From positions 6,289-46,356 of the forward strand of contig CAYOGW010000005.1 in NCBI GenBank assembly GCA_964403635.1: a stretch of 40,068 bases of DNA. The letters are read 5' to 3'. This DNA comes from an uncultured Anaerolineaceae bacterium. Lineage in GTDB: Bacteria > Chloroflexota > Anaerolineae > Anaerolineales > Villigracilaceae. Made by a program: the position numbers and the translations under genes. Shown here in pieces: positions 15,320 through 31,482 of this stretch. The first letter of the stretch is position 1; each line of letters starts with the position of its first letter. The notes beneath the pieces were generated by a model, which was not told the DNA's origin, ran no database searches, and saw only the letters and a list, made by a program, of their open reading frames with translations.

Positions 15320-16147
15320 ATGGATACTCCCCGCTTGCACACCCGTATTTTGCCTGCCAGCCGCCCAACGTTAGGAATAAAAGAGTTATGGGCATACCGA
15401 GAATTGCTTTATTTTATGGTCTGGCGAGATATTAAAGTTCGCTACAAACAAACCTTGTTAGGCGCGGCTTGGGCTATCTTGCAGCCACTTTTAACCATGC
15501 TGGTCTTTAGCTTGTTTTTTGGCAAACTGGCTGGCTTACCTTCAGACGGCATTCCCTATCCCATTTTTAGTTTTGCTGGTCTTGTCCCATGGACATTTTT
15601 TGCCAACGGTTTAACCCAATCTACCGCCAGTTTGGTCAACAGTGCCAACTTAATTAAAAAAGTGTACTTTCCGCGCTTAATTATTCCCATCTCAGCCGTA
15701 CTTTCAGGGCTGGTAGATTTCGCCTTGGCGTTTTTCGTGCTTCTTCTCTTGATGGTCTATTACGGCATACAACTCAACATTAACATTTTTTGGCTGCCGG
15801 TTTTTTTACTGTTAGCCTTAGTTACCTCCCTGGGCGCTGGGTTATGGCTGGCTGCCTTAAACGTCAACTACCGAGATGTTCGCTACATCGCCCCCTTCCT
15901 CGTCCAATTTTGGATGTTTGCTTCACCAGTGGCTTACTCCAGCGGCTTACTTTCAGAACCTTGGCGCACACTGTACGGCATTAACCCGCTGGTTGGCGTT
16001 TTAGACGGCTTCCGCTGGGCTTTACTCGGTATTCAAACCGCCCCCACTGCCATTGTTTGGGTTTCAGCCGCCGCCGCCAGCCTGCTCTTCCTCAGCGGAT
16101 TAATTTACTTTCGCGCCGCCGAAAAAACCTTCGCGGATGTGGTTTAA
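15320..16147 (+). CDS. wzm: ABC-2 type polysaccharide export permease (Wzm / TagG / KpsM family)
   Basis: 'ELLYFMVWRDIKVRYKQTLLGAAWAILQPLLTM' is the canonical ABC-2 N-terminal motif. Six predicted TM helices, 275 aa. Confidence 0.85.
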   Translation: MDTPRLHTRILPASRPTLGIKELWAYRELLYFMVWRDIKVRYKQTLLGAAWAILQPLLTMLVFSLFFGKLAGLPSDGIPYPIFSFAGLVPWTFFANGLTQSTASLVNSANLIKKVYFPRLIIPISAVLSGLVDFALAFFVLLLLMVYYGIQLNINIFWLPVFLLLALVTSLGAGLWLAALNVNYRDVRYIAPFLVQFWMFASPVAYSSGLLSEPWRTLYGINPLVGVLDGFRWALLGIQTAPTAIVWVSAAAASLLFLSGLIYFRAAEKTFADVV

Positions 16148-16149
16148 AA

Positions 16150-17412
16150 ATGAGTAACATAGCCATCTCCGTTCAACAGTTGGGTAAGCAATATACCATC
16201 GGCGAAAAGCAGCCCCCCTATCAAACCCTGCGCGATTCTCTCAGCCGCGCCGCCAACCGCTTGTTCTCGCCCCAACATACAGCATCTACCCGCTCATTTT
16301 GGGCGTTACAAAACATTAATTTTGAAATTAATCAGGGCGATGTGGTCGGGATAATTGGCAAAAACGGAGCTGGAAAAAGCACCCTGCTTAAAATACTTTC
16401 TCGCATTACCGAACCCACCCTTGGGTCTGTAGATTTGTATGGCAAGGTTGGTTCACTTCTGGAGGTAGGTACCGGCTTCCACCCCGAACTTACCGGACGA
16501 GAAAATATATTTTTAAACGGCGCCATTTTAGGCATGCACCAAATAGAAATTAAACAAAAATTAGATGAAATCATCGCCTTTGCCGAAATTGAGCCGTTTA
16601 TAGACACCCCTGTAAAACACTACTCCAGCGGCATGTACTTACGGTTGGCTTTCTCAGTGGCGGCTCATTTAGAGCCAGAGATTCTACTGGTAGACGAAGT
16701 ACTAGCCGTTGGCGATTTGGCTTTTCAAAAAAAATGTCTCGGCAAAATGAGTGCTGTTGCCAAGCAAGGCCGTACGATTTTATTTGTCAGCCACGACATG
16801 ACCAGCATTTCCGTTTTATGCCCCACCGCCATTCTGCTAGAAAAAGGACAAATCAACAAGCAGGGACCCACCCTAGAAGTCATTGCAGATTATTTAAAAA
16901 GTAGCACATCTGAAAATGCGGTTACCCGCTGGGACGAACAAACCGCCCCCGGCAACCAACAAGTGCGATTAATTTTAGTGCAAGCCTGTTTAAACGGTCA
17001 AAATAAACCACAAGAAAACTTCTTCATCGAGCAATCCATTTCGCTTCAACTTAGCTTTAAAGTAACAGCTGGTGCAAAAAAACCGCGATTAAACCCGGTA
17101 TTTCGGGTAAGAAATTTAACCGGTTTAACCATCTTCACCACTGCCAATTATGACGACCCAAGCTGGGGTAAAAAGAAATATGAAAACGGAAACTATCATG
17201 TCAGTTGTAAGATTCCAGCACACCTATTTAATGATGGAACCTATTTAATTGATGTGTTGCTTGTGCACGAAAGCCGCGAGGTCTGGGCAGAAGCCGAAGG
17301 CGCGATTCGATTTTCGGTAGCCGATAACGGCAGCACTCGTGGAGATTATGTGGGCGATTGGCACGGCGCGGTTCGCCCCTATTGCACCTGGAACGGAGAG
17401 AAAATTAATTAA
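16150..17412 (+). CDS. wzt: Polysaccharide export ABC transporter ATP-binding protein with C-terminal carbohydrate-binding domain (Wzt / TagH type)
   Basis: Walker A 'GKNGAGKST', signature 'YSSGM', Walker B 'ILLVDE'. An extra C-terminal beta-rich domain of about 170 aa, as in Wzt proteins that read a terminal cap. Start ATG 16150 lies 2 nt after the wzm stop; the overlapping ORF-track start 16057 was rejected. Confidence 0.85.
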   Translation: MSNIAISVQQLGKQYTIGEKQPPYQTLRDSLSRAANRLFSPQHTASTRSFWALQNINFEINQGDVVGIIGKNGAGKSTLLKILSRITEPTLGSVDLYGKVGSLLEVGTGFHPELTGRENIFLNGAILGMHQIEIKQKLDEIIAFAEIEPFIDTPVKHYSSGMYLRLAFSVAAHLEPEILLVDEVLAVGDLAFQKKCLGKMSAVAKQGRTILFVSHDMTSISVLCPTAILLEKGQINKQGPTLEVIADYLKSSTSENAVTRWDEQTAPGNQQVRLILVQACLNGQNKPQENFFIEQSISLQLSFKVTAGAKKPRLNPVFRVRNLTGLTIFTTANYDDPSWGKKKYENGNYHVSCKIPAHLFNDGTYLIDVLLVHESREVWAEAEGAIRFSVADNGSTRGDYVGDWHGAVRPYCTWNGEKIN

Positions 17413-18191
17413 TGAGTGAAATCCCTGAAAGAATTGTGCCCGGCTCGGCAGACTGGGAACACTACTATTACGAGCACAGCCAGCGCTACGAATTTTTTGC
17501 AGACCAATGCAAAGAAAAAACCGTGCTAGATGCGGCTTGTGGTGTGGGCTATGGTAGCCAACTATTAGCCAAAGCCGGAGCCAAACGTGTGCTGGGGGTA
17601 GATATCTCGGAGGAAGCCATTCAGCTAGCCAAAAGCCAATTTAACGGCGAGAAGGTTTCTTTTGAGCCAGCCGATGTCACTCATCTGCATGTGCCAAATG
17701 ATTCTTTTGATGTAGCCGTTAGTTTTGAAACCCTTGAACACATTGCCAAGCCCGAAGCGTTTGTAAAAGAATTAAAACGGGTGCTAAAACCAAACGGGCT
17801 ATTAATCATCAGCACACCCAACAGCCAGTTTGGCAACAAAAGCCAAACAGCCAACCCCTATCACCTTTCTGAATTAACGTTTAATCAATTTAAACTGTTA
17901 ATTAATCAATATTTTCAGATTGAACAAATTTACGCCCACAGCCATACACCCGCTTATTTAAGACACCTACAATTGCTGGAACATCTGAATCAATTGGATC
18001 GTATGGTTCGCTATAGCCCTTTTATTAAATTAGAAAATACCCTACGGCGTTGGTTAGGGCGTTGGCACAGCCAGTTACCGAACTTTCCGGCTGGGTTGGG
18101 TAATGTGCTGCCCGGCGATTTTGAAATTAAACCAATTAATGAAGGCTTACCAGAACACTTAACTTTTATTATTAAGGCTACCAAAAAATAA
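17412..18191 (+). CDS. Class I SAM-dependent methyltransferase
   Basis: Motif I 'VLDAACGVGYGS', an acidic 'VDIS' motif II, 'LKPNGLLIIST' post-I. Start overlaps the wzt stop by 1 nt. Confidence 0.8.
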   Translation: MSEIPERIVPGSADWEHYYYEHSQRYEFFADQCKEKTVLDAACGVGYGSQLLAKAGAKRVLGVDISEEAIQLAKSQFNGEKVSFEPADVTHLHVPNDSFDVAVSFETLEHIAKPEAFVKELKRVLKPNGLLIISTPNSQFGNKSQTANPYHLSELTFNQFKLLINQYFQIEQIYAHSHTPAYLRHLQLLEHLNQLDRMVRYSPFIKLENTLRRWLGRWHSQLPNFPAGLGNVLPGDFEIKPINEGLPEHLTFIIKATKK

Positions 18192-18192
18192 A

Positions 18193-19386
18193 ATGCCAAA
18201 ACCCCTGCATGTTGCCTTTGTTTCGCAAGAATACCCGCCAGAAACTGGCTGGGGCGGCATTGGCTCGTACACCTACGAAATGGCAAACGGGCTGGCAGAG
18301 ATGGGCGTACAAGTGAGCGTAATTTGCTTGGCGCTAGTACAAGAAACACAAACCCAAGAGAAAAATTTAACCATCTACCGTGTGAGACCAGCCCCCCGCT
18401 GGGAACGCCTGCGCGGCGGCTGGCGGATTAACCGATTTTGGCCGGGTTTTGCTTGGGCAGCTGCTCAGCAACTGAGATTAATTAATCAGACTAAGCCGAT
18501 TGATTTGATCGAATATGCCGAAATTCGCGGCGATGGGTTTTTTCTTCCGTTTTTACTACCAGCCATTAAACGAGTGGTGCGCCTGCATACCGCTTGGATT
18601 TTTGTAGATGAATTAAATAAAATTAAACCCAATACTGCTAAAAAATTAATCTACTGGCAAGAAAAACAAAGTGTTTACGCTGCCCATTCTGTCAGTTCGC
18701 CCAGCCACGCCATGTTTGAAAAAACGCTCACTTGGCTGCCGAGCTTAAAAAAGAAGCCGCGTTTTATTTTGCCAAACCCTGTAGATGCCGAAACCTTTTT
18801 ACCAAAAACCAAAACACCCAAACAACAAGAGATTGTATTCATTGGGCGCCCTGAAATTCGCAAAGGGATTGAAACGCTCACCCAAGCCTTGCCAAATATA
18901 TTAGAAAATAATCCACAGGTTGTCTTTCGTTTAATCAGCGACCCGCAAACCGAATTAATGGGTGAACCCGCACAAGAATGGGTTTTAAAACAAATGCCCC
19001 AAAACCTGCACCCGCGCATCACCTTTGAAGCGGTAACCCGAGACCAATTGCCAAAAACGCTCTCCAGCGCCAGCCTCGCCGTGCTGCCCTCGCTTTGGGA
19101 AAACTTTCCCTACGCGATACTCGAAGCCATGTCTTGCGGCTTGCCTGTAGTGGTTACGCGCATTGGCGGCTTACCAGAAATCGTCACCGATTTAGAAAAC
19201 GGGCTGCTTGTGCCTGTCGGTAACACGGCAGCCCTTAGCCAAGCGGTTACGTCTCTACTGCAAAACCCAACCCTACGCGCCAACTTGGGGGCAGCCGCCC
19301 GCCAACAAGTGTTACAAAATTTCAGCCGAAAGGCGGTATTACCCGCTATGCTTTCTTATTATCAAACCCTTGCGAGCCAGCCATGA
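18193..19386 (+). CDS. GT4-family glycosyltransferase (GT-B fold)
   Basis: N-terminal 'FVSQEYPPETGWGGIGSYTYEMANGLAEMG' and C-terminal 'ENFPYAILEAMSCGLPVVVTRIGGLPEIV' (E-x7-E motif region). Confidence 0.8.
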   Translation: MPKPLHVAFVSQEYPPETGWGGIGSYTYEMANGLAEMGVQVSVICLALVQETQTQEKNLTIYRVRPAPRWERLRGGWRINRFWPGFAWAAAQQLRLINQTKPIDLIEYAEIRGDGFFLPFLLPAIKRVVRLHTAWIFVDELNKIKPNTAKKLIYWQEKQSVYAAHSVSSPSHAMFEKTLTWLPSLKKKPRFILPNPVDAETFLPKTKTPKQQEIVFIGRPEIRKGIETLTQALPNILENNPQVVFRLISDPQTELMGEPAQEWVLKQMPQNLHPRITFEAVTRDQLPKTLSSASLAVLPSLWENFPYAILEAMSCGLPVVVTRIGGLPEIVTDLENGLLVPVGNTAALSQAVTSLLQNPTLRANLGAAARQQVLQNFSRKAVLPAMLSYYQTLASQP

Positions 19387-20291
19387 CCTTAATCAGCGTT
19401 GTCATTTGCACCCATAACCGCGCGCCATATCTGCGCGCCGCCTTACAAAGCCTCAGCCAGCAAAGTATGTCAAAATCTCGCTTCGAGGTGCTGGTCATTA
19501 ACAACGCTTCCAGCGATTCTACGGTTCAAGTTGCTGAGAGCTTTCAGCAGTCATTAAATATAAAATTAATTAACGAACCCAACCTAGGGCTTTCTTTGGC
19601 TCGCAATCGCGGGTTAGAAACCAGTAAAAGCGAAATTATTTGTTATATGGATGACGACGCGATAGCCAGCCGAGATTACTTAAAAGCGATTCTTTCCGCT
19701 TTTCGGGCGGTCTCCCCCCAGCCTGCTCTCGTTGGTGGGAGAGTTTTGCTCCACTGGAACGGCCCGCTGCCCAACTGGCTGCCAGAAAAATATCTCAGCC
19801 TATACTCCATGCTCGATTATGGCGAACAAGCCAAATTTATTTCTGAAAGTGAGTACCTTGTTGGTGCAAACTTCGCTGCTCAAACTAGCTTTCTGCGCAG
19901 CATTGGCGGCTTTCAGCCAAGCCTAGGCCGTCAAGGCGGAAACCTGCTCTCGGGAGAAGAAACGCAGGTTCTGCTGAAGGCCCGTCAATTGGGGTTACCC
20001 ATCTATTATCAACCCAGCGCGTTGGTTTGGCATACGGTTACCCCAGGGCGGAAAACACGCGCCTGGCTACGAAAGCGGATTTTTTGGGATGGCGCTTCTC
20101 AACCCTTAATTAATTGGAAAGCCGAGCAACCAAAAAGTTATTACTTTAAACAAAGCCTCATCGACCTGCGCCGTATGATTCGCTTTTGCTGGGACCTGCT
20201 TCAAGGCTCTCCGGATGCTTTTTATCATTTGATTCAGCGCAGCGGACGGCTGCGCACCCATTTAATGCTGTGGCTGGGAATTAATCGTTAA
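19383..20291 (+). CDS. GT2-family glycosyltransferase (GT-A fold)
   Basis: 'ISVVICTHNRAPYLRAALQSLSQQ' and the 'YMDDDA' DxD motif. Start overlaps the previous stop (ATGA). Confidence 0.8.
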   Translation: MTLISVVICTHNRAPYLRAALQSLSQQSMSKSRFEVLVINNASSDSTVQVAESFQQSLNIKLINEPNLGLSLARNRGLETSKSEIICYMDDDAIASRDYLKAILSAFRAVSPQPALVGGRVLLHWNGPLPNWLPEKYLSLYSMLDYGEQAKFISESEYLVGANFAAQTSFLRSIGGFQPSLGRQGGNLLSGEETQVLLKARQLGLPIYYQPSALVWHTVTPGRKTRAWLRKRIFWDGASQPLINWKAEQPKSYYFKQSLIDLRRMIRFCWDLLQGSPDAFYHLIQRSGRLRTHLMLWLGINR

Positions 20292-20292
20292 G

Positions 20293-22947
20293 ATGCATAT
20301 TTGTTTTGTCTCTTTAGATTATCCTTCGGAAACTTCTGGCGGCGGCGTAGGAACAATTATGCAGCTGCTGGCAAAGGGATTTTCAGAAGACTGTCAACAA
20401 GTCAGTGTGATTGCGCTTCAACAAGAAGGTGAAGCCCCTTTCTCGCGGGATGGCGATGTGCTTATTTGGCGGTTTAAACCTTCTCACTTGCATTGGTATG
20501 TTTCAAAAATTCCATGGCTGGGAAAGAACTTAAGCCCCGTGGTGAGAGAATTAGAACGAAGCTGGGGCGCTTGGCGGCTGCTACAAAAAATTAATCAACA
20601 AAAAGAAGTTCATGCCGTTGAATTAATTGAAACCGGCGGGCTGTTTATTTCGCTTTTAGAAAGAGCCAAATTAATCGCGGTGCGCTTACACGGCGAACAA
20701 TATACTTTTCAAAAATATACACCTTTCCTTCAACTCAATTGGGGGTTAAAACTCACCCGTTTCATCCAACGTGTTGCCATCCGCAATGCCAATTTAAGAA
20801 TTTCCCCCAGCCACTGGCACGCCCAAGAAATTGCTGAAGAAACCGGTTTAAATAAGCAATCTATTCTGGTTTTATCGAATGCCATTGCTATTCCAACCAA
20901 GTTTCAGTTTTCAAATAATCACGCCAACCCTTTAATTCTTTTTGCTGGACGTTTAGAGCAATTAAAAGGTGTGCCATTGTTATTAGAAGCGTTTGCTTTA
21001 CTGCGAAAAGAAATGCCGCATGTTCGGCTTGCCTTAGCAGGAACATCTCACCCCAGCTTGCCAGAAAGCCAATTGAAAGAACTCATCCATCAATACCACC
21101 TTGAAAAATCAGTTCAACTGCTGGGATACATCCCCAACCAACAGTTAAAAGATTGGTTTAAAAAATCATCTGCGCTGGTGCTGCCTTCGTATTACGAAAG
21201 CTTTGGCTTAGCCGCCTTAGAAGCCATGGCGCACGGTTTACCAGTGGTTGCCTCTACAGCGGGCGCTTTACCCGAATTAATTAAAGAGAATGAAACTGGC
21301 TTGTTATTTAAAAGCGGAGACGCGCAAGCTTTGGCTGGTCAACTAAAAAAAATATTAAGTAGCCCCAAGCTACAAAAGCATTTGGCAAAAAATGCTCACC
21401 GCTTTAGTTTGCAACACTTTAATGCAAAAGAAAGCATTCTGCAAAACTTAACCCTTTATAAAAATAACTTAAAAATCCCGCCAAGCCCCAAACATGTGTT
21501 TTTTTCTCCACATTTGGATGATGTCATCCTTTCGTGCGGTGGAACAGTGAAAGAATTAAATAAAAACGCGCCTGTTGAAGTGGTGACAGTTTTTAGCGGT
21601 CAACCCAAAACCGCCGCAATAGGCACATTTGCAGAACACATTCATGCCAAGTGGAACTTGCCGCCGCAGACCGCAATTCTTTCTCGCCGCGATGAAGACC
21701 TGCTGGCTTTTTCAATTCTGTCTCCTACTATCCAAGTGACCCATTGGGGTTATCTAGAGGCGTTATACCGTCAGGAAAAAAACCACCAACCCCTGCATTC
21801 CGCTTATCAAAGCCTGCGTGGACCTCTACATCAGCAAGAAGAAGCCTTGATACCAACCCTTGTTTCACAAATCGAAAACCATTATTCAAAAGAAAATCAA
21901 CTTTATTTTCCAATGGGTTTGGGCACTCATGTAGACCACCGCATCTTATTTAAAACAGGCTACCAATTAAATCAACGGGGCTGGCCAGTGTTTTTTTATG
22001 AAGACTGGCCCTATGCAGAAAATTACGAACCTATTAGTAAGAAAAATTGGCAAGTTCTTGATCAACCAATTTCGCTTACCGAAAAAATTAAAGCGGCCGA
22101 AGCCTATGGATCTCAGCAAAAAGGGCTTGGGTATAGCCTAGCCGACCGATTAACAAACTATGCTCATCAAAACAAAAACCCATTGAAGACCAGTGAACGC
22201 ATTTGGCAGGCACAGCCCAACGATGAAGAAGTACCATTTAAACTCAAAAAGAAACAATGGCAGCTTGCCGATTTTTTAATTTTTTATAAAAGCCTTAACT
22301 GGAGAGATCTCTCCGAGCGGCTGCCGTTGGGCAGCGGTTACTGTTTAGATATTGGCAGTGGCAGCGGCAGAAACCAAGTAGCCATTGAAACCAAAGGTTA
22401 CACTTGGCTAGGGCTGGATTTAAACCGTCAGCGGAGGCAACACCTGCAAGCCAGCGCCAGCCGCCTGCCGGTAGCCAGCCAAAGCGTTGAGGCGGCTATT
22501 CTTTGGCAAGTGCTAGAATATCTCGAAAACCCTCAACAAGCGTTAGCAGAAGCCATCCGCACTTTAAAACCTGGCGGCGTGCTCTGCGGTAGCGTTTCAT
22601 TTTTAGAGCCGGTTCATGGACAAACCTATTATGGCATCAGCCATCACGCCATTCAAAAATTATTAATAGACCAACCTTTGCTGGATATTCAGATTCAGCC
22701 GGGCATTTCTGGCTTTACCCTGCTGATATGGACCTGGCTTAATCGTCTAGGCTTAAGCAGGCTAAGCGGATTGTGCCTGCCGTTATCGAGGTTTTTTTTG
22801 GTGCCCCCAGCCGCTTTGCTATTTTTGGTCAGTTGGCTGCAATGGCGGTTAGGCTGGGGCAGCGGGCATTTTATGGCGTGGCTGACAGAACGCGCCCCGC
22901 TGGAATTTGCAGGGCATATTCACTTTATTGCCAGAAAAGCAAGCTAA
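20293..22947 (+). CDS. Tri-domain enzyme: GT4 glycosyltransferase / LmbE(PIG-L)-family N-acetylglucosaminyl deacetylase / class I SAM methyltransferase, with C-terminal hydrophobic segment
   Basis: aa 1-390 GT4 ('ESFGLAALEAMAHGLPVVASTAGALPELI'). aa ~400-640 LmbE-like ('VFFSPHLDDVILSCGG' resembling the HPDDE zinc motif, and 'GLGTHVDHR' resembling HxDH). aa ~650-884 MTase ('CLDIGSGSGRN', 'LKPGGVLCGSV'), followed by a hydrophobic tail. Confidence 0.75.
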   Translation: MHICFVSLDYPSETSGGGVGTIMQLLAKGFSEDCQQVSVIALQQEGEAPFSRDGDVLIWRFKPSHLHWYVSKIPWLGKNLSPVVRELERSWGAWRLLQKINQQKEVHAVELIETGGLFISLLERAKLIAVRLHGEQYTFQKYTPFLQLNWGLKLTRFIQRVAIRNANLRISPSHWHAQEIAEETGLNKQSILVLSNAIAIPTKFQFSNNHANPLILFAGRLEQLKGVPLLLEAFALLRKEMPHVRLALAGTSHPSLPESQLKELIHQYHLEKSVQLLGYIPNQQLKDWFKKSSALVLPSYYESFGLAALEAMAHGLPVVASTAGALPELIKENETGLLFKSGDAQALAGQLKKILSSPKLQKHLAKNAHRFSLQHFNAKESILQNLTLYKNNLKIPPSPKHVFFSPHLDDVILSCGGTVKELNKNAPVEVVTVFSGQPKTAAIGTFAEHIHAKWNLPPQTAILSRRDEDLLAFSILSPTIQVTHWGYLEALYRQEKNHQPLHSAYQSLRGPLHQQEEALIPTLVSQIENHYSKENQLYFPMGLGTHVDHRILFKTGYQLNQRGWPVFFYEDWPYAENYEPISKKNWQVLDQPISLTEKIKAAEAYGSQQKGLGYSLADRLTNYAHQNKNPLKTSERIWQAQPNDEEVPFKLKKKQWQLADFLIFYKSLNWRDLSERLPLGSGYCLDIGSGSGRNQVAIETKGYTWLGLDLNRQRRQHLQASASRLPVASQSVEAAILWQVLEYLENPQQALAEAIRTLKPGGVLCGSVSFLEPVHGQTYYGISHHAIQKLLIDQPLLDIQIQPGISGFTLLIWTWLNRLGLSRLSGLCLPLSRFFLVPPAALLFLVSWLQWRLGWGSGHFMAWLTERAPLEFAGHIHFIARKAS

Positions 22948-22948
22948 C

Positions 22949-24121
22949 ATGCAGATACTCTTTTTAAGCATCGAATCACCCTATGACCCAAGCCGCGGCG
23001 GAGGGATTGCTTCTTATTTGCGGGCTATCATTCCCTATTTAATTAATGAGGGGCATCAGGTCACTTTAATTAGCCATGCCTATTTGCCGCCTAAAAACCA
23101 ACCAAAAAGCGTAAATTTTATTATTCAACATATTCAACTACCAAGCCTGCATTGGTATTTGGCAAAATTGGGCAGTCTTGTCAAACCATTGGTCTTGCCA
23201 TTAAGACAACTGGAGTGGTCGATTGGGTTTTACTGGACAGCGAGAACTGTTTTAAAACAACAGCCCAACTGTGTGATTGAATCCGCTGAAAGCGGGGCGC
23301 TTTTGTTCGGGCTGCTGCACCCCAAAAAACTGGTCATCCGTTTGCATGGCAGCGAATATATATTTAGAAAATTTTTAAACCAGCCATTAACTTTAGGAAC
23401 AAAAATTAATTTTTGGCTAGAAAAACAAGCTTTAAAACGAGCGGCGCTGGTAACCGCCCCCAGCCGTTTTCAGGCGGAATATGTTGCAAATCTGCTGGGC
23501 TGGCCTGCCGACAAAATTAAAGTAATTCCCAACCCATTAAGTGAAGATTATTTTCTACCGTTACCAGCGGCAAAAAAACACGCCCGCCCAATGATTTTAT
23601 TTGCTGGCCGCTTGGCAAGCATTAAAGGGGTTGACACCTTAATACAAGCCTTTCCACTGGTTCAAAAAAAGTATCCGCAAGCTTTGTTGGTGTTGGCAGG
23701 ACCCAACCAATTGCCCAATTTAAACTTAACACTAGATGCCAAAGTAGGTATAAACAAAGGCTTGCTTTGGTTGGGGCACCAAACACAAACTCAAATGCAA
23801 GTGTGGTATCAGCGGGCAAGTGTGTTGGCGATGCCTTCTTTTTATGAAACCTTTGGCTTAGCCGCCTTAGAAGCCATGGCTTGCGGCTTACCTGTGGTTG
23901 CCACCCATGTTGGCGGCATTGCTGAATTGATTAAAGACCAGCAAAACGGATTATTGGTTTCTGTTGGAGACGAAAAAGAGTTAGCAGATGGTATATGCAA
24001 AATATTGGAAAACCCTTCATTAAGGCAAACATTGGCTGAAAATGCTCAAAAAACTATCCAACAATATCACCCGCAGCGAGTAAGCTTGCAATTAATGAAA
24101 GCCTATCAGGGATTAATGTGA
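22949..24121 (+). CDS. GT4-family glycosyltransferase
   Basis: 'ETFGLAALEAMACGLPVVATHVGGIAELI' and 'ILFAGRLASIKGVDTLIQAF'. ATG 22949 lies 1 nt after the previous stop; ORF-track start 22907 rejected. Confidence 0.8.
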   Translation: MQILFLSIESPYDPSRGGGIASYLRAIIPYLINEGHQVTLISHAYLPPKNQPKSVNFIIQHIQLPSLHWYLAKLGSLVKPLVLPLRQLEWSIGFYWTARTVLKQQPNCVIESAESGALLFGLLHPKKLVIRLHGSEYIFRKFLNQPLTLGTKINFWLEKQALKRAALVTAPSRFQAEYVANLLGWPADKIKVIPNPLSEDYFLPLPAAKKHARPMILFAGRLASIKGVDTLIQAFPLVQKKYPQALLVLAGPNQLPNLNLTLDAKVGINKGLLWLGHQTQTQMQVWYQRASVLAMPSFYETFGLAALEAMACGLPVVATHVGGIAELIKDQQNGLLVSVGDEKELADGICKILENPSLRQTLAENAQKTIQQYHPQRVSLQLMKAYQGLM

Positions 24122-25281
24122 AAATACTGTTAATATCTGCTTCCTATTTGCCAGTAAAAGGGGGCCTACAAACGGCTACCCATGCGCTTGCCAAAGAATG
24201 GCAAAAAAACGGGCATACGGTGCGAGTCTTAACCAACCATTATCCGCGTGGATTAAAGAGCGCTGAAATGGTTGAGAATATTTCCGTTGAGCGGGAGTTG
24301 TTTTTATCTCCATCGATTGAATTAATTAAGCGTGGGCGCTGGGATATATGGCTTGCCAGCCTTTTTTATCAGCCACTTGTTTTATTGAAACTATTTATAT
24401 TAATGAAACAGTTTCAACCCGATGTGATTAATCTCCATTTCCCTTCATCCCAAGTGCCTTTTGTGCTTTGGTTAAAAAAACATTTTGCATTTAAATTAAT
24501 CGTTTCGTTGCACGGAACTGACATTGAACAATGGTTGAAAGAAGACAAACTAAGCCTTATAACTGAAAAACAAAATAATCCATCTTTTCTTCAGTTGCGG
24601 CGGGTTTTAAAAGAAGCCATGATTATTACCGCTTGTTCTGCCGATTTATTAAACAAAGCTTGTTTTATTGAACCTGAAATTAAAAATAAAAGCCATGTCG
24701 TGCATAATGGAGTGGATTGGAAGTTATTTCAAAGCAAAGAGCAACACTTGCACCCTGCCCCTTATCTTTTTGCTTTTGGGCGTTTAACCGCCGCCAAAGG
24801 GTTTGATCTCTTAATTAAAGCCTTTGACGGTTTAACCAGCCTGCAACCCAACCTAGATTTGCTTTTGGCAGGAGATGGTTCGGAAGCGGCAGCATTAAAA
24901 GAGCAAGTAAAAAAGCTGGGGCTGAGCCAGCGGGTCTTCTTTTTGGGCGCGCTTAACCCGCCAGAGATTGTGAAACTCTTAAATGGCTGTCTGTTTGCAG
25001 TCATTCCATCTCGAAAAGAACCATTTGGCATTGCCGCTTTAGAAGCCATGGCAGCTGGCAAAGCCGTTTTAGCAACAAAGGTTGGCGGATTAAATGAATT
25101 TGTACCAAAAAGAAACAGGCTAGTAAACCCCAATGCCGAATCACTGCTAGAAGGGATGCAACAAATGCTTCAACTCAATTTAACAGAAATCGGTGAAGTA
25201 AACCGGCGAGTGGCAAAAAAACTTTCGTGGGCGGCGGCGGCAGAAAAATTTATTGCGTTATTTAACGAAGCAGGAGTGTAA
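24118..25281 (+). CDS. GT4-family glycosyltransferase
   Basis: 'VKILLISASYLPVKGGLQTATHALAKEW' (GTG start) and 'EPFGIAALEAMAAGKAVLATKVGGLNEFV'. Confidence 0.8.
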   Translation: MKILLISASYLPVKGGLQTATHALAKEWQKNGHTVRVLTNHYPRGLKSAEMVENISVERELFLSPSIELIKRGRWDIWLASLFYQPLVLLKLFILMKQFQPDVINLHFPSSQVPFVLWLKKHFAFKLIVSLHGTDIEQWLKEDKLSLITEKQNNPSFLQLRRVLKEAMIITACSADLLNKACFIEPEIKNKSHVVHNGVDWKLFQSKEQHLHPAPYLFAFGRLTAAKGFDLLIKAFDGLTSLQPNLDLLLAGDGSEAAALKEQVKKLGLSQRVFFLGALNPPEIVKLLNGCLFAVIPSRKEPFGIAALEAMAAGKAVLATKVGGLNEFVPKRNRLVNPNAESLLEGMQQMLQLNLTEIGEVNRRVAKKLSWAAAAEKFIALFNEAGV

Positions 25282-25284
25282 ACG

Positions 25285-26724
25285 GTGGCATCTCAGAAAA
25301 AATCGTTAGGCGGTTTAAAACCCATTCCCAAAAGTGACCTTTCTTTACCCGCGCCATTTATTGTGCTTTTTTTAGTTTGGGGGGTTGCGTTTGCTTTATT
25401 GGCTTCCCCTTTGGTTGCCAGCATGAGCACTGTAGAAAAAATTATTGTATTAGCAATTCCCGCCGTTTTATCTGTTTTGGTAGTGTTGTTAGACATTGAG
25501 CATGGCATGACGTTTTGGGTATTAGGGTTAACGCTGCTGGTAACCCAAACTGGTTTTCAATTAGATATTTCTACTTTAAGAACCAGCGCTTTAGAATTAA
25601 TGACTATTTTGCTAATGGTCATTTTATTTTTTGACCGCACGGGTTTGTTTAAGCGCGTTTGGGCGTTGTTTCCGGGGCGTGTACCGGTTACTTTATTTGC
25701 GTTGTTTTCATTATTAATGTTATTTGTTGGGGTTATTCAAGGCGACAATTTATTACAAGCTCTTTCTCAATTAAAAGGATTTTTAATTTACCCGTTAATG
25801 GGAATTTTGCTGGCGGCGGGCATTCGGTCTACCGCTATGTTGCGCTGGGTCATTGGCATTGTTTTGGCTTGGTATGTTTTAGTGGCTGGCTGGGGCATTC
25901 TTCAATTTGTTCAGGGACAAAATATGTTGGCTCAAGACTATTTGTTCCGTGCATCTGGCGAATATGCCCCGATTAATATTTATGGTATTACTTTAATGGC
26001 TTGTGCATTATTGTTAGCGGGCATTGTCATCAGTACGCGCGGATTTCGCAGCCGTGTGCTGGGCAGTGGATTAATGATTTGGCTCATTATTGGCATGCTG
26101 GTTTCTGTTTCTCGCTCGGCTTTGCTTGGCTTGGTAATTGGCTTAATTGTCTTGTTTTTAGAAAGAAAAAGCCTTCGTATGATTATTGTTGGCTTGATAT
26201 TGGTGGGTCTCGCCGCTTGGGCGCTTTCAGACCTGCTTCCGCACGAAATCACCAACCGTTTATTTCAACTATCCGATTCATCCACTGTCCGGCGCGAATT
26301 CTACCTAGAATCAGGTTGGCAAGCTTTGCTCACTTTTTGGGCGTACGGCGGCGGCTGGGGCAATGGCTATTGGTATGTTTCTAACGCGGGCTTGGTGAAA
26401 TCTGGTTTTATGCCTTGGTATCACAATGATTTTTTAAACCTAGCGGTTCAAATTGGCGTTTTTGGCGCTTTTTTATATATCCTTTTTTGGGGGCGGGTCG
26501 TTCAAACCGGTTGGCTTTGGCTGCGCACCTACGCCACTAGTCAGCCAGAACTAGTTCCATTTGCGCGCGGCGCGCTGGCCGCGTTAATCGGCTTGCTGGT
26601 GGCCGCGGTTTTTGAACATGTTTTATGGCGCCCAGATATTGCCGGTTTGGTGGGTTGGATGCTCGGCATTTTAATTGCCATAATCACTTTGCAAAAACGC
26701 TTTGCTGAAGATACACCCGCATGA
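25285..26724 (+). CDS. Wzy_C / O-antigen ligase family polytopic membrane protein (polymerase, WaaL-like ligase or O-oligosaccharyltransferase)
   Basis: About 11 predicted TM helices. 'SVSRSALLGLVIGLIVLF' and 'WYHNDFLNLAVQIGVFGAF' resemble the Wzy_C loop/helix motifs with conserved R and H. GTG start with SD 'aggagt'. Confidence 0.65.
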   Translation: MASQKKSLGGLKPIPKSDLSLPAPFIVLFLVWGVAFALLASPLVASMSTVEKIIVLAIPAVLSVLVVLLDIEHGMTFWVLGLTLLVTQTGFQLDISTLRTSALELMTILLMVILFFDRTGLFKRVWALFPGRVPVTLFALFSLLMLFVGVIQGDNLLQALSQLKGFLIYPLMGILLAAGIRSTAMLRWVIGIVLAWYVLVAGWGILQFVQGQNMLAQDYLFRASGEYAPINIYGITLMACALLLAGIVISTRGFRSRVLGSGLMIWLIIGMLVSVSRSALLGLVIGLIVLFLERKSLRMIIVGLILVGLAAWALSDLLPHEITNRLFQLSDSSTVRREFYLESGWQALLTFWAYGGGWGNGYWYVSNAGLVKSGFMPWYHNDFLNLAVQIGVFGAFLYILFWGRVVQTGWLWLRTYATSQPELVPFARGALAALIGLLVAAVFEHVLWRPDIAGLVGWMLGILIAIITLQKRFAEDTPA

Positions 26725-27869
26725 AAAAAATTGTTTTTATCGATGAGACAGCAGAAATTGGCGGAGCAGAAATTAATTTATTGTTGCTTGCCGAACAATT
26801 AAACCAATTAAACTGGGATATAGAAGTCTGGCTGCCTAAGCTTGGACCTTTAGTGCAAAAACTAGAAGCGCGCTCTATCCCCGTTAAAATCATCCCTGCT
26901 TTTCGGTGGTTTTCTGTTTCATTTTATCTATTCGGCAAAAAAATAATTAACCCAGCCGCGCTGATTGTTAATTTGATCAGCGGTTTAATTTGGAGTTATC
27001 GATTACGAACAGCTTTAAAAGAAACCCGCCCTCAGGTTGTACAAACGGTCAGTTTATGGGGGCACGCTTGGGGTGGGTTCGCCGCCCGTTCCTTCAATAT
27101 CCCGCATGTGGCTCATTTTCAAGATATCGTTTCGAAAGGGCTGTTTCAATTTTTGGTTAATCAATGGGGCAATTCCATCCCCACTAAAATTATTTGCATC
27201 TCTAAACCGGTAGCCAAGCAATTTAATTTAAATGCATCAAAGAAATTAATCACACTACCCAATATCGTTGATATTAATAAATTTACCCCAGCAACAAACA
27301 AGCCAAAAAACAATATTTTAACCATTGGCACAGTGGCGCGCATCACCCGCTGGAAAGGGCAAGACCAAGCCTTAAAAGTAGCCGCCCTGCTTAAGCAAGA
27401 GAACATTCCATTTCAATGGTGGTTTATTGGCAGCGCGGCGCTCGGCTCAGAAGACTTTTTTGAAGAATTAAAGGATTTCATTAATAAGCATCAATTAACC
27501 GAAGTGGTTACACTGGCGGGCTGGCACGAAAACATGCCCGCCTTTTACCAAAGCCTCGATCTGCTGGTTCATTTGCCAACTGAAACAGAGCCTTTTGGGC
27601 TGGTATTAGCGGAAGGTTTAGCCAGTGGTCTTTCGGTGATTGCCACCGAAGGCGGCGGCGCAGATGAATTGGTGCGGGCGGGCGGCGGTTTTTTAGTTTC
27701 CAAAACCAACCCCGTTGTAGAAGCCCGCAATAGAGTGGTTGACCTTTGGCAAAACCCATCCCTCTTAAGCCAAAGCAAGCAAGAAGCCCGCCGTATAGCA
27801 GAAAATCTATTTAGCCTTTCGGTTTACATTTTTAATTGGCAAACCATTTATAAGGAGTTAGGCGCATGA
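26721..27869 (+). CDS. GT4-family glycosyltransferase
   Basis: 'MKKIVFIDETAEIGGAEINLLLLAEQL' and 'EPFGLVLAEGLASGLSVIATEGGGADELV'. Confidence 0.8.
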   Translation: MKKIVFIDETAEIGGAEINLLLLAEQLNQLNWDIEVWLPKLGPLVQKLEARSIPVKIIPAFRWFSVSFYLFGKKIINPAALIVNLISGLIWSYRLRTALKETRPQVVQTVSLWGHAWGGFAARSFNIPHVAHFQDIVSKGLFQFLVNQWGNSIPTKIICISKPVAKQFNLNASKKLITLPNIVDINKFTPATNKPKNNILTIGTVARITRWKGQDQALKVAALLKQENIPFQWWFIGSAALGSEDFFEELKDFINKHQLTEVVTLAGWHENMPAFYQSLDLLVHLPTETEPFGLVLAEGLASGLSVIATEGGGADELVRAGGGFLVSKTNPVVEARNRVVDLWQNPSLLSQSKQEARRIAENLFSLSVYIFNWQTIYKELGA

Positions 27870-28681
27870 GCAGACAAAAAATATCGGTCATTGTGCCAAC
27901 CGGCAACCGCATGGATACCCTAGAAGATTGTTTAAACAGTGTTCATTGGGCAGATGAAATACTGGTCATCGATTCGTATTCAACAGACGGTTCTTTTAAA
28001 TTGGCAGAAAAACTTGCCACCAAAGTGATAAAACACGAATATGGCTTTTCTGCTTTGCAAAAAAACTGGGCTATTCCACAAGCCGCTCACCAATGGGTTT
28101 TATTGCTGGATACCGATGAACGTGTGACCGAAACCCTTAAACAAGAAATTTTGACCATTCTAGAAAAAAACCCGCCGCTGGCTGGCTATAAAATTGCCCG
28201 TGTTAATTATTTGTTTGGTAAAAAAGTAAGCCACGCGGGCTACTTTCCAGATTATCAAGTGCGGTTGTTTCGGCGAGATTTAGCCAAGTATGAGCTTCGC
28301 CAAGTGCACGCCCATATGATAGTAGAAGGCGACTGCGGCGCCTTAAATGCTCCGCTGGTTCATTATGCTCACCGCAGCTTAAACCAAACTTTGCAAAATT
28401 TATTAATCCAAATGACCACCTGGGAAGCCGAAGAACGGGCAAAAAAGCCCGTTCGTTTCTTGGCTTTCCATTTAATTTTTAGACCCATCGCCGCCTTTTT
28501 GTTGCGTTATTTTTGGCAAGGCGGCTGGCGCAGCGGATTTCACGGTTTCGTTGTGAGCTTACTGTGGGCGATGTATGTTTGTATTACCTACCTAAAAATT
28601 TGGGAAAGCCAATTAAATTTAGCGCCTAATTGGTGGCAAGCCCACTGGCAGCAGCCGCAGGTTCAACATGACGGCGGATAA
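27866..28681 (+). CDS. GT2-family glycosyltransferase
   Basis: 'ISVIVPTGNRMDTLEDCLNSV' and the 'LLDTDE' DxD motif. Hydrophobic C-terminal region. Confidence 0.75.
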   Translation: MSRQKISVIVPTGNRMDTLEDCLNSVHWADEILVIDSYSTDGSFKLAEKLATKVIKHEYGFSALQKNWAIPQAAHQWVLLLDTDERVTETLKQEILTILEKNPPLAGYKIARVNYLFGKKVSHAGYFPDYQVRLFRRDLAKYELRQVHAHMIVEGDCGALNAPLVHYAHRSLNQTLQNLLIQMTTWEAEERAKKPVRFLAFHLIFRPIAAFLLRYFWQGGWRSGFHGFVVSLLWAMYVCITYLKIWESQLNLAPNWWQAHWQQPQVQHDGG

Positions 28682-29666
28682 ACCTCGTTTATTATTCCTT
28701 CACAACGGGCAAGAACGATTTGTACAACAGGATTTACAGTTGCTGCAAAGCGATTTTCAAGTCACCGATTTTTACATGCCTAACAAATTCCCACAAAACG
28801 GGTTTAAACTCTGGCAGGCTATTCAGGCTGCCGATGTGATTTTTATTTGGTTCGCCAGTTGGAATGCCTTTTGGGCTATCCAAATCGCAAATTTATTCAA
28901 TAAAAAATCGGTCTTGGTAGTTGGCGGTTACGACACAGCCAACCTGCCAATTGCCAACTATGGCAGCCAGCGCGGCGGGCTGACAAAATGGATGAGCCAA
29001 AACACCATGAAAACAGCCGATTTAATTTTGCCATTTTCAGAATATAGCCGTAGCGAAGCCCACACCCAAGCTGAGATTAATTTACAAAAAATGCATACCG
29101 TTTACCTAGGCGTGCCCGACCTTTTTGCTGATTCGCAAAACTTCTCTAAAAACGGTTCGGTATTAACCGTTGGCAATGTAGAATGGGCCAACCTACAACG
29201 CAAAGGGTTAGAACCATTTGTACAAACAGCCAGCCGATTACCAGAAACCAATTTCATCTTAATTGGCGCGTGGCGAGACGATTCGATTAATTATTTAAAA
29301 AAAATTGCCACCCCCAATGTTACGTTTACTGGGAAATTAAGCGATACTGAATTAATAAATTACTATCGCGAAGCCAGCGTTTATGTGCAAGCCTCGCTGC
29401 ACGAGGGCTTTGGCTTAAGCGTTGCAGAAGCCATGCTGGCAGAATGTGTACCCGTGGTAACCAAAGTTGGCTCGCTGCCAGAAGTAGTTGGCGAATGCGG
29501 AATTTATGCAGACTCACCCGAGCCTGCCCACCTCGCCACAAGCATTCAACAAGCTTTTAACGCTCAACCCGAACAAGGGAAAAAAGCCCGTCAAAGGATA
29601 TTAATTAAATTCCCACCAGAAAACCGTCAAAAAGCGCTCAGTGATTTCATTAAGGGGCTGCTATGA
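28668..29666 (+). CDS. GT4-family glycosyltransferase (short N-domain)
   Basis: 'EGFGLSVAEAMLAECVPVVTKVGSLPEVV' and 'FILIGAWRDDS'. Overlaps the previous gene by 14 nt. Confidence 0.7.
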   Translation: MTADKPRLLFLHNGQERFVQQDLQLLQSDFQVTDFYMPNKFPQNGFKLWQAIQAADVIFIWFASWNAFWAIQIANLFNKKSVLVVGGYDTANLPIANYGSQRGGLTKWMSQNTMKTADLILPFSEYSRSEAHTQAEINLQKMHTVYLGVPDLFADSQNFSKNGSVLTVGNVEWANLQRKGLEPFVQTASRLPETNFILIGAWRDDSINYLKKIATPNVTFTGKLSDTELINYYREASVYVQASLHEGFGLSVAEAMLAECVPVVTKVGSLPEVVGECGIYADSPEPAHLATSIQQAFNAQPEQGKKARQRILIKFPPENRQKALSDFIKGLL

Positions 29667-31412: not shown

Positions 31413-31482
31413 CCCGATGTTGCAATGTTCTTATACGCATTGAATTGGCATAATGGGGCTACTCTATAAAGGAAAGACGCTT

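Follow-up and report, generated by a model that had tools for sequence, protein, structure and literature searches.

The results establish that an open reading frame in a 40,068-nucleotide stretch of DNA from an uncultured Anaerolineaceae bacterium (the window) encodes a single polypeptide in which a GT4 glycosyltransferase, an LmbE/PIG-L-type de-N-acetylase, and a class I SAM-dependent methyltransferase (MT) are fused, and that the fusion is genuine, rare, and conserved across phyla. The enzyme is assembled from well-known enzyme families, and we infer its chemistry. GT4-then-LmbE logic is known from mycothiol, bacillithiol, GPI anchors, aminoglycosides, and glycopeptides. The first-pass annotation of the window knew of no characterized enzyme that combines GT4, LmbE/PIG-L, and MT domains, and full-text literature searches likewise found none.

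Results

The three-domain fusion is genuine

The open reading frame is complete (20293..22947, + strand; ATG start, 884 aa plus stop; ORF listing), and its ATG is separated by a 1-nt gap from the stop codon of the upstream GT2 gene. The reading frame is unbroken from GT4 through LmbE/PIG-L to MT, with short linkers. A Pfam scan of the 884-aa protein places all three domain families above gathering cut-offs, with Glyco_transf_4, Glycos_transf_1, PIG-L, and Methyltransf_11 in the order that had been predicted, and an AF2 model of the whole protein is confident (mean pLDDT 89.3, pTM 0.70). The public gene call, P0001, is 862 aa and starts at M23; we prefer M1, and thus the 884-aa form, because the family consensus opens with MHICFxSLxYP.

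The contig comes from a metagenome assembly, and other genomes carry split versions of these genes, both of which would be compatible with a sequencing or assembly frameshift that joined two or three separate genes. However, the same continuous, full-length architecture is present in ~50 independent protein clusters that have 33-44% identity to the window protein and that derive from different assemblies, projects, phyla, and sequencing technologies; in addition, the window frame is continuous across its short linkers, and the AF2 model is confident across the domain junctions. Because the fusion recurs in this way, we reject a frameshift or assembly artefact, the probability of which we consider negligible. 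The fusion had been described as unusual; it is indeed rare, but, with ~50 clusters sharing it, it is not unique.

The GT4 domain retains its catalytic residues

The GT4 domain (aa 1-392; 20293..21468, +; Pfam, Foldseek, conserved residues) is of GT-B fold and retaining type. It matches Glyco_transf_4 at aa 17-198 (34.1 bits vs. a cut-off of 28.5) and Glycos_transf_1 at aa 204-369 (2e-44; 151.6 bits vs. a cut-off of 26.4), and the AF2 model and Foldseek reveal the two Rossmann domains of the GT-B fold. The 40 relatives compared all share residues H133, R220, K225, E302, and E310. E302 and E310 are the two Glu residues of the EX7E motif (ESFGLAALE; 21196..21222, +; both conserved 40/40), and R220 and K225 (40/40) are the predicted Arg/Lys pair for binding of the donor diphosphate. 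Judged by these residues, the domain looks catalytically competent.

Structural comparison by Foldseek yields TM(target) values of 0.80-0.83 with MshA (3c4q), BshA (5d00/5d01), and SPS (6kih), and the nearest GT4 neighbours, at equal significance, include UDP-GlcNAc enzymes (MshA, BshA), UDP-Glc enzymes, and GDP-Man enzymes. Matches to the MshA equivalog (TIGR03449; 101.4 bits vs. a cut-off of 462.5) and the BshA equivalog (TIGR03999; 97.9 bits vs. a cut-off of 273.7) are confined to the C-terminal half and lie far under the NCBIfam cut-offs, and membership in either family is rejected. Sucrose-phosphate synthase, which uses UDP-Glc, and MshA and BshA lie equally close to the domain; the nearest structures do not tell UDP-GlcNAc from UDP-Glc enzymes, and we dropped them as a basis for assigning the donor sugar. 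The GlcNAc donor of the earlier assignment is, to this extent, a candidate only.

The LmbE/PIG-L domain retains a complete deacetylase active site

The middle domain (aa 401-652; 21493..22248, +; Pfam, phmmer, DSSP of AF2 model) matches PIG-L PF02585 at aa 403-556 (41.2 bits vs. a cut-off of 28.2). The two motifs on which its original identification relied, SPHLDDVILSCGG (aa 405-417) and GTHVDHR (aa 544-550), are both present in the protein sequence. In a phmmer search against solved structures, the closest relatives are the glycopeptide deacetylases Dbv21 (3dfi; 1.7e-15) and Orf2* (2x9l; 6e-13), which align over ~245 residues, including the capping-loop region, with an identity of only ~30%.

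In LmbE enzymes the motif is HxDD plus H, in which the two His and the second Asp are metal ligands and the first Asp is the general base (PMC4101496). In the window protein, the H-x-D-D motif (H407-L-D409-D410; 21511..21522, +) aligns with Orf2* H16/D18/D19 and is conserved in 40/40, 39/40, and 40/40 relatives, respectively, and the H-x-D-H motif (H546, D548, H549; 21928..21939, +) aligns with Orf2* H161/D163/H164 and is conserved at all three positions in 40/40. By this alignment, H546 is the predicted oxyanion-stabilizing residue and H549 is the predicted third metal ligand. Across the full alignment, Orf2* H16/D18/D19/R75/D97/H161/D163/H164/Y190 correspond to H407/D409/D410/R465/E489/H546/D548/H549/Y574, such that a conserved counterpart exists for all Orf2* residues, catalytic or substrate-binding, that mutagenesis showed to be essential or that serve as metal ligands or general base. 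The auxiliary catalytic residues R465 (which orients the base), H546, D548, and Y574 are invariant among the 40 relatives, and E489, at the position of the sugar-binding acid Orf2* D97, is E in 31/40 and D in 8/40. The anticipated His/Asp/His zinc triad is therefore intact, as is the general-base Asp (D409, with its single exception among the 40), and we reject a degenerate, non-catalytic middle domain because every catalytic residue is conserved. The domain looks competent, from its residues, as a metal-dependent de-N-acetylase.

When the middle domain was scanned alone (aa 392-654), no LmbE-family NCBIfam model matched at E <= 0.01, and membership in the MshB, BshB, or Mca families is rejected. 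A specific likeness to MshB, BshB, and PIG-L, as previously suggested, does not hold, since Dbv21 and Orf2* are closer. Nor does the domain fall in the glycopeptide-deacetylase class, given the ~30% identity, the polysaccharide cassette, and the absence of NRPS genes from the locus.

The methyltransferase domain contains a hydrophobic insertion

The MT domain (aa 655-884; 22255..22944, +) matches Methyltransf_11 at aa 685-765 (49.8 bits vs. a cut-off of 21.2) and has the features of a class I MT: a GxGxG motif I, an acidic residue ending strand beta2 (D709, intact), and a seven-stranded Rossmann-like fold. SAM-binding motif I (LDIGSGSG, aa 685-692; 22345..22368, +) is intact in the window protein and in ~30 relatives and is degenerate in one subclade. 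In the window protein the domain looks, by these motifs, catalytically competent. Structural neighbours are a mixture of N-, O-, S-, and C-methyltransferases, and NCBIfam matches are generic and all sub-threshold; because the neighbours are mixed, we abandoned a call of N- vs. O-methylation from sequence or fold.

The first-pass annotation placed a hydrophobic tail at the C-terminus. The hydrophobic segment is present, but lies inside the MT fold: three helices (aa 807-871; 22711..22905, +) are inserted between beta6 and beta7, ahead of the last strand (aa 873-882) and a conserved C-terminal FxARK. An internal helical insertion of the MT fold thus replaces a C-terminal transmembrane tail, and, by hydropathy and the model, it is probably a monotopic or re-entrant membrane anchor. 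The insertion is conserved only in relatives with an intact MT motif. One subclade retains an intact deacetylase alongside a decayed MT motif and insertion, and methylation is therefore dispensable; by this pattern, the deacetylated residue need not be the target of the MT.

The fusion gene has a fixed position in a conserved glycan-assembly cassette

The gene occupies a fixed position in a ~16-kb cassette with the order Wzm-Wzt-MT-GT4-GT2-fusion-GT4-GT4-membrane protein-GTs. At least 14 uncultured species, from Acidobacteriota, Chloroflexota, and Planctomycetota, share this cassette in collinear form, and Omnitrophota carry it in part. The FTHFS gene points to an Anaerolineales-like genome as the source of the window. 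At the cassette head is an exporter comprising Wzm (ABC-2 permease) and Wzt (ATPase) (15320..17412, +; Pfam), orthologues of which in related loci have 58-70% (Wzm) and 45-59% (Wzt) identity. The C-terminal domain of the window Wzt matches Wzt_C with 28.5 bits, under the Pfam cut-off of 30.4 (the score is better in locus L002), and gave no match in the PDB. Between the exporter and the fusion lie a stand-alone MT, a GT4, and a GT2 (17412..20291, +; Pfam), an order repeated in L001, L010, L012, L015, L017-L019, and L022; matches of the stand-alone MT in the PDB are to generic MTs, with WbdD absent among them. Downstream of the fusion are GT4, GT4, a Wzy_C-like membrane protein, GT4, GT2, GT4, GT2, and an MT (22907..31412, +; Pfam), for which the related loci have collinear orthologues with 25-58% identity. 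These genes are followed by an initiating polyprenyl-phosphate glycosylphosphotransferase, consisting of Bac_transf plus a PglD_N/CoA_binding_3-like domain, and a DegT-type aminotransferase (31453..34150, +; Pfam, NCBIfam); genes for DegT and Bac_transf likewise border the cassette in L002, L015, and L017-L019. In sum, the cassette contains Wzm/Wzt, ten GTs, the glycosylphosphotransferase, and the aminotransferase, and the assignment of the gene to a polysaccharide locus is confirmed by the Pfam content of its neighbours.

The three modules also occur in split and variant forms. In L005, a GT4-PIG-L protein is followed directly by a separate orthologous MT (41% identity, 1e-54, insertion included), in an orthologous cassette that has a Wzx-type flippase and lacks Wzm/Wzt. 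In L007 and L008, PIG-L-MT is a single protein adjoining a GT9 gene; we rejected these loci as natural GT4/PIG-L-MT splits because the upstream gene is a GT9 and not a GT4 orthologue, and, with a GT9 as the neighbour, the GT4-LmbE pairing is not obligatory. Other independent architectures elsewhere comprise PIG-L-MT, GT4-PIG-L, and PIG-L-GT4. Taken together, the fused and split gene arrangements support a predicted functional coupling of the three modules.

Discussion

We propose that the protein is a trifunctional, membrane-tethered tailoring enzyme that acts at the cytoplasmic membrane face on a polyprenyl-diphosphate-linked glycan intermediate, a proposal that in our judgement could fall either way. 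According to this proposal, the retaining GT4 domain would extend the growing lipid-linked glycan by an N-acetyl-hexosamine, in the simplest case GlcNAc donated by UDP-GlcNAc; the LmbE/PIG-L domain would strip the N-acetyl group, using a His2-Asp-bound metal and an Asp general base, to leave a free amine; and the class I MT would methylate the same residue with SAM. The new amine would be the most economical methyl target, and a hydroxyl would be equally compatible with the data. The hydrophobic helical hairpin in the MT would hold the enzyme at the membrane beside its lipid-linked substrate, Wzm/Wzt would export the finished glycan, and the Wzy_C-like protein or the LCP enzyme would then attach it to the envelope. 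From what is observed (domain identity, intact catalytic residues, the conserved fusion and cassette, and the natural split forms) we infer the donor sugar, the common target residue of the three domains, the methyl-acceptor atom, the membrane anchoring, and the lipid-linked acceptor. For the substrate class, analogy with the closest solved deacetylases and with the MshA/BshA GT4 neighbours counts for the GlcNAc-linked reading; the substrate of Orf2* and Dbv21 is a GlcNAc already on a large aglycone (PMC4101496).

It is possible, if doubtful, that the three active domains instead serve different steps or residues of the same glycan, with, for example, the GT adding one sugar, the deacetylase editing another HexNAc (reducing-end or primer), and the MT O-methylating a third, and that the fusion merely keeps tailoring activities together at the membrane. 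Such an arrangement would accommodate the interchangeability of the GT partner (fused GT4 or GT9 neighbour), the decay of the MT in a subclade with an intact deacetylase, the many further HexNAc-capable GTs in the locus, and the frequent use, in ABC-transporter glycan pathways, of multi-domain enzymes with independent activities, such as trifunctional WsaE (PMC2943079). It accounts less well for the observation that these same three modules recur as fusions, or as neighbours in every split state, beyond what unrelated steps would lead one to expect, and for the fact that characterized GT/LmbE pairs all act consecutively on one sugar (PMC4101496). Because the locus holds, besides the tri-domain enzyme, two stand-alone MTs and nine other GTs, assignment of individual steps to individual residues is guesswork. 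Quite unlikely, in our view, is a chain-terminator role in which methylated GlcN is a non-reducing-end cap that stops elongation and is read for export by Wzt through its C-terminal domain. Models for such a cap are WbdD of E. coli O8/O9a and the MT domain of WsaE. The Wzm/Wzt head of the cassette, the Wzt_C-like C-terminal extension of Wzt, and the precedent of GT+MT multi-domain terminators (PMC2943079) are in keeping with a cap; however, L005 keeps the split enzyme yet has a Wzx-type flippase, the presence of ten GTs in collinear order fits a defined hetero-oligosaccharide better than a polymer whose length must be controlled, the window Wzt_C match is sub-threshold with no solved relative, and the stand-alone MT directly after wzt is an equally good terminator candidate. 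The suggestion in the first-pass annotation of a cap recognized by Wzt thus lacks specific support, given the relative in which a Wzx flippase takes the place of Wzm/Wzt.

If the GT4-LmbE pair did not modify a polysaccharide, it could make a GlcN metabolite, such as a thiol akin to mycothiol or bacillithiol or a compound of the aminoglycoside type; MshA/MshB and BshA/BshB share its order of steps, and the best structural matches include MshA and BshA. We nevertheless consider this highly improbable: the scores for MshA (101 vs. 462 bits) and BshA (98 vs. 274 bits) are far under equivalog cut-offs, there is no MshB/BshB/Mca match, a cysteine ligase and other thiol-pathway genes are absent, a membrane anchor is predicted, and the gene has a fixed place in a conserved cassette for glycan assembly that also encodes an exporter and a glycosylphosphotransferase.

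The proposed trifunctional enzyme can be compared with several known systems. By analogy with Orf2* and Dbv21, deacetylases of the teicoplanin and A40926 pseudoaglycones, the middle domain probably deacetylates an aglycone-attached GlcNAc after glycosyl transfer and before further modification of the amine. Orf2* and Dbv21, however, are stand-alone, soluble enzymes in NRPS antibiotic clusters, and the amine they expose is N-acylated, not methylated, whereas in the window protein the domain is flanked by fused GT4 and MT domains and is encoded in a cassette for a cell-surface glycan. MshA/MshB, BshA/BshB, PIG-A/PIG-L, and BtrM/BtrD have the same order of chemistry, GT4 transfer of GlcNAc and then LmbE exposure of the amine, but are separate polypeptides with small-molecule or phosphatidylinositol acceptors, and the window locus differs from the Msh and Bsh systems in being a polysaccharide-assembly locus without a downstream Cys ligase. 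WsaE of the Geobacillus stearothermophilus S-layer glycan is trifunctional, has GT and MT domains, is encoded in a Wzm/Wzt-dependent, Wzy_C-ligase-containing cluster of a monoderm, and by methylation tailors or terminates a lipid-linked glycan (PMC2943079). It combines an MT with two rhamnosyltransferases and no deacetylase, is described as soluble, and has its MT at the N-terminus, producing a 2-O-methyl cap; the likeness seen to the window protein is one of domain content and generic folds. In Pseudomonas aeruginosa, WaaG (a GT4 that can transfer GalNAc) and DnpA (PIG-L family) are encoded in the same LPS core cluster, and sequential action followed by amine modification has been proposed, a link that is itself speculative (PMC10579960). 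WaaG and DnpA differ in being products of separate genes, in that DnpA is only a putative de-N-acetylase, and in that the follow-up step is alanylation, not methylation. Literature searches for an LmbE enzyme in O-antigen/Wzt pathways found nothing directly relevant, and the enzyme in a paper on a Bacteroides CPS deacetylase is a CE4.

In its most far-reaching form, which we advance tentatively and consider unlikely, our proposal makes the fusion the signature enzyme of an undescribed ~16-kb, ten-GT, cross-phylum cassette and a membrane-anchored line that places a cationic N-methyl-glucosamine in a glycan: GlcNAc would be added, its acetyl group removed, and the exposed amine N-methylated, so that the residue would occupy a set position in a conserved glycan of the cell surface. 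To our knowledge, neither an N-methyl-glucosamine residue nor polymer-level N-methylation of an amino sugar has so far been described for bacterial envelope polysaccharides. If the proposal is correct, a single polypeptide adds, de-N-acetylates, and methylates on a lipid-linked glycan, GT4-then-LmbE logic extends to envelope polysaccharides, and a positively charged, possibly N-methylated amino sugar is introduced. The large cassette for which the enzyme is a marker is collinear over distant phyla of abundant uncultured soil and sludge bacteria, and the enzyme is therefore a handle for finding and defining their surface glycan. A self-contained trifunctional enzyme could also serve glyco-engineering, and the helical insertion may be a new kind of membrane tether for a class I MT.

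The tri-domain protein is encoded by a genuine, conserved, and rare gene

The protein is encoded by an uninterrupted ORF of 884 codons (20293–22947, + strand) whose ATG start lies 1 nt after the stop codon of the upstream GT2 gene. All Pfam families matched exceed their gathering scores and stand in the order that the first-pass annotation had proposed from sequence alone: Glyco_transf_4 (aa 17–198) and Glycos_transf_1 (aa 204–369; 2e-44) in the GT4 domain, PIG-L (aa 403–556; 41.2 bits vs. a cut-off of 28.2) in the LmbE/PIG-L domain, and Methyltransf_11 (aa 685–765; 49.8 bits vs. a cut-off of 21.2) in the class I SAM-dependent methyltransferase (MT) domain. The two peptides quoted in that annotation are present, SPHLDDVILSCGG at aa 405–417 and GTHVDHR at aa 544–550. 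The public call of this gene (P0001) is 862 aa long and starts at M23 of the 884-aa ORF, omitting window positions 20293–20358 and, with them, the conserved first β-strand and Gly-rich loop of GT4. Because the family consensus N-terminus is MHICFxSLxYP, the relatives support the upstream ATG, and the 884-aa start is the better of the two.

Searching 5.8 billion proteins by word index, we recovered ~50 clusters whose matches span the entire fusion at 33–44% identity with an identical Pfam set. Different projects contributed these clusters, which belong to Chloroflexota (Kouleothrix/Ca. Ribeiella), Acidobacteriota (Pyrinomonadaceae, Bryobacterales, Terriglobia), and Planctomycetota (Gemmataceae). 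This recurrence excludes a frameshift, the artefact that the first-pass annotation had raised, as the origin of the fusion. When one genome per species was scanned, the PIG-L+MT arrangement was present in only 16 of 185,579 species, all 16 represented by MAGs, and among 1.84 billion cluster representatives, searched exhaustively by HMMER with the PIG-L+MT half as query, only 41 matches reached E ≤ 1e-30. From recurrence in the first search and scarcity in the others, we conclude that the fusion is genuine, conserved, and rare.

The glycosyltransferase and deacetylase active sites are intact

In a 40-sequence alignment of the fusion and its relatives, H133, R220, K225, E302, and E310 of the GT4 domain are invariant, the two glutamates forming the EX7E motif of GT4. 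MshA, BshA, and sucrose-phosphate synthase all match the GT4 model at a TM-score of ~0.8, and their E-values are statistically equal; by NCBIfam scores, the fusion falls outside the MshA and BshA equivalogs.

Among solved structures, the middle domain is closest to two glycopeptide pseudoaglycone GlcNAc deacetylases, Dbv21 (3dfi; 1.7e-15) and Orf2* (2x9l; 6e-13), which align over ~245 residues. An HxD1D2 + H metal site is the defining feature of the LmbE superfamily, and R75, D97, H161, D163, H164, and Y190 of Orf2* are essential by mutagenesis (review PMC4101496). The counterparts of Orf2* H16, D19, R75, H161, D163, H164, and Y190 are H407, D410, R465, H546, D548, H549, and Y574, each conserved in 40 of 40 sequences; D18 corresponds to D409 (39/40), and D97 corresponds to E489 (E in 31/40, D in 8/40). 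The His/Asp site by which the first-pass annotation proposed to judge this domain is thus kept on the Orf2* alignment, at 39 or 40 of the 40 sequences. NCBIfam places the middle domain outside the MshB and BshB equivalogs.

The methyltransferase domain contains a helical insertion

In the MT domain, motif I (LDIGSGSG) is intact, an acidic residue, D709, ends β2, and the segments WQxxEY and FLEPxHG are invariant. AlphaFold2 models of the full-length fusion (mean pLDDT 89.3, pTM 0.70) and of the MT domain alone (pLDDT 89.4, pTM 0.83) place three helices (aa 807–818, 822–852, and 859–871) between the penultimate and final MT strands. What had been described as a hydrophobic tail is therefore, in the models, an insertion inside the MT domain, followed by the last strand (aa 873–882) and by an extreme C-terminus, FxARK, that is kept family-wide. 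No other stretch of the protein is as hydrophobic as the central helix of the insertion (Kyte-Doolittle 19-residue mean 1.87; 1.3–2.9 in relatives), which has a conserved Pro midway along it and lies between Trp-rich amphipathic helices. Because the insertion begins and ends in one and the same cytoplasmic domain, we infer a putative monotopic or re-entrant membrane anchor, not a transmembrane tail.

About nine relatives (P0033, P0034, P0037, P0038, P0040, P0041, P0044, P0045, and P0047; e.g., locus L006, 48–2645) have a decayed motif I and retain the deacetylase motifs and GT4. The entire helical insertion is absent in exactly this subclade, which includes Gemmataceae/Planctomycetota and in which the C-terminal domain is an apparent pseudo-methyltransferase.

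The domains also occur in split and alternative forms

At L005, a related locus from another genome, the orthologue is a 669-aa GT4-PIG-L protein followed directly by a separate 231-aa MT, which matches the window MT domain at 41% identity (1e-54), helical insertion included. The L005 cassette (L005 4196–7154 and 10001–12698) contains a Wzx-type flippase (Polysacc_synt) and a Wzy_C protein and lacks Wzm/Wzt; therefore, one glycan-building module serves two export routes. In two MAGs, one from Omnitrophota (L007, 492–3207) and one from Pyrinomonadaceae (L008, 3209–6002), PIG-L-MT is a separate protein of 510–543 aa. The gene just upstream in each is of the GT9 family (heptosyltransferase-like) and is not the GT4 orthologue; in L007, the PIG-L-MT gene is followed by one for a B12-binding radical-SAM protein. 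The exhaustive search also recovered stand-alone MTs with the insertion, stand-alone PIG-L proteins, and independent PIG-L-MT, GT4-PIG-L, and PIG-L-GT4 architectures. The deacetylase has therefore been paired repeatedly both with an MT and with a glycosyltransferase, and the tri-domain protein is a union of these two recurrent pairings.

The fusion is part of a collinear cross-phylum glycan cassette

As the first-pass annotation had noted, the fusion gene lies within a polysaccharide locus, here a long co-directional operon of glycan-assembly genes. The order is Wzm, Wzt (with a sub-threshold Wzt_C-like domain), MT, GT4, GT2, the fusion, GT4, GT4, a Wzy_C-like membrane protein, GT4, GT2, GT4, GT2, and MT, and then a polyprenyl-phosphate glycosylphosphotransferase, a DegT aminotransferase, Wzz/BY-kinase, an LMW phosphatase, and an LCP ligase; a sortase is encoded on the opposite strand at the end of the locus. 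The gene for formate-tetrahydrofolate ligase has its best named matches, at 81–83%, in Anaerolineales, which places the host in the Chloroflexota, with a monoderm-type envelope toolkit.

Comparison of window proteins with related loci by tblastn defines a cassette of ~16–19 kb (window 15320–34150) with counterparts in loci L001, L002, L010–L013, and L015–L022. From Wzm to the last GT2, and often to DegT, the cassette is collinear gene for gene at ~40–50% identity (Wzm, 58–70%) in at least 14 uncultured species-level genomes from three to four phyla (Acidobacteriota, Chloroflexota, Planctomycetota), and the fusion always lies between a GT2 and a GT4. The conserved unit is therefore far larger than the fusion gene. 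This collinearity implies a probable conserved complex glycan, not described before, and the cassette may spread horizontally.

A membrane-tethered, three-step enzyme is the best-supported hypothesis

According to the best-supported hypothesis, to which we give about even credence, the fusion is a membrane-tethered enzyme that acts on a cytoplasmic polyprenyl-diphosphate-linked glycan: the GT4 domain would transfer a HexNAc (in the simplest case GlcNAc), the LmbE domain would then free its amine, and the MT would methylate the same residue, on N or O. The observations behind the hypothesis are the identity of the domains, their intact active sites, the conserved fusion, its split forms, and the cassette context; we infer the donor sugar, the action of all three activities on one residue, the acceptor atom, and membrane anchoring. 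Two observations oppose a strict three-step line, that the partner is a GT9 in some genomes and that the pseudo-methyltransferase subclade has lost the MT, and both favor the main rival, a less probable yet substantial one, that the domains work on different residues and are fused for co-localization only.

The first-pass annotation described the fusion correctly, and its interpretation holds in part. A cap recognized by Wzt, one of the roles it suggested, is unlikely: the L005 cassette is of the Wzx type, the window Wzt_C match is sub-threshold and has no solved relative, and the ten collinear glycosyltransferases suggest a defined hetero-oligosaccharide, not a length-controlled polymer. A small-molecule role, of the thiol or aminoglycoside type, is contradicted by both NCBIfam scores and gene context and is highly improbable.

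The working order of glycosyltransferase and then LmbE enzyme is that of MshA/MshB, BshA/BshB, PIG-A/PIG-L, and BtrM/BtrD, and, among such systems, the closest likeness is to the glycopeptide route whose last enzyme is Orf2* or Dbv21. In pathway logic, the fusion resembles WsaE, a trifunctional enzyme from the S-layer glycan cluster of Geobacillus. This cluster depends on Wzm/Wzt and has a Wzy_C-type transferase, and an MT domain caps its chain (PMC2943079). WsaE lacks a deacetylase. The pair proposed for the Pseudomonas aeruginosa LPS core, WaaG and DnpA, is also comparable (PMC10579960). A full-text literature search, incomplete in coverage and thus giving absence of evidence only, returned no study of a GT4-LmbE-MT protein, in line with the earlier statement that no enzyme of such architecture is known to have been characterized, and none that places an LmbE enzyme in a Wzm/Wzt pathway. 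The fusion is an uncharacterized combination of known enzyme kinds, rare and conserved and not categorically new. It has an unusual MT insertion, a putative membrane anchor, lies in a notable cross-phylum glycan cassette, and is worth biochemical follow-up.

Additional features of the locus

Upstream of the glycan locus, two ORFs, of 523 aa (7828–9399, + strand) and 320 aa (10415–11377, − strand), gave no Pfam hit at E ≤ 1e-5. Called mechanically, the ORF of the GT4 downstream of the fusion (22907–24121, + strand) has a TTG start and a 41-nt overlap with the fusion gene; an in-frame ATG at 22949, 2 nt past the fusion stop codon, is the more likely start, since it fits tight operon packing. In a 697-aa protein (37636–39729, − strand) whose gene is convergent with that of the adjoining LCP ligase, Big_3_5 and He_PIG Ig-like domains occur together with a sortase domain at the C-terminus. 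The initiating glycosylphosphotransferase (31453–32994, + strand) has an N-terminal, catalytic Bac_transf domain (aa 38–231) and a CoA_binding_3/PglD_N-like Rossmann domain (aa 316–493), the reverse of the usual WbaP/WcaJ order.
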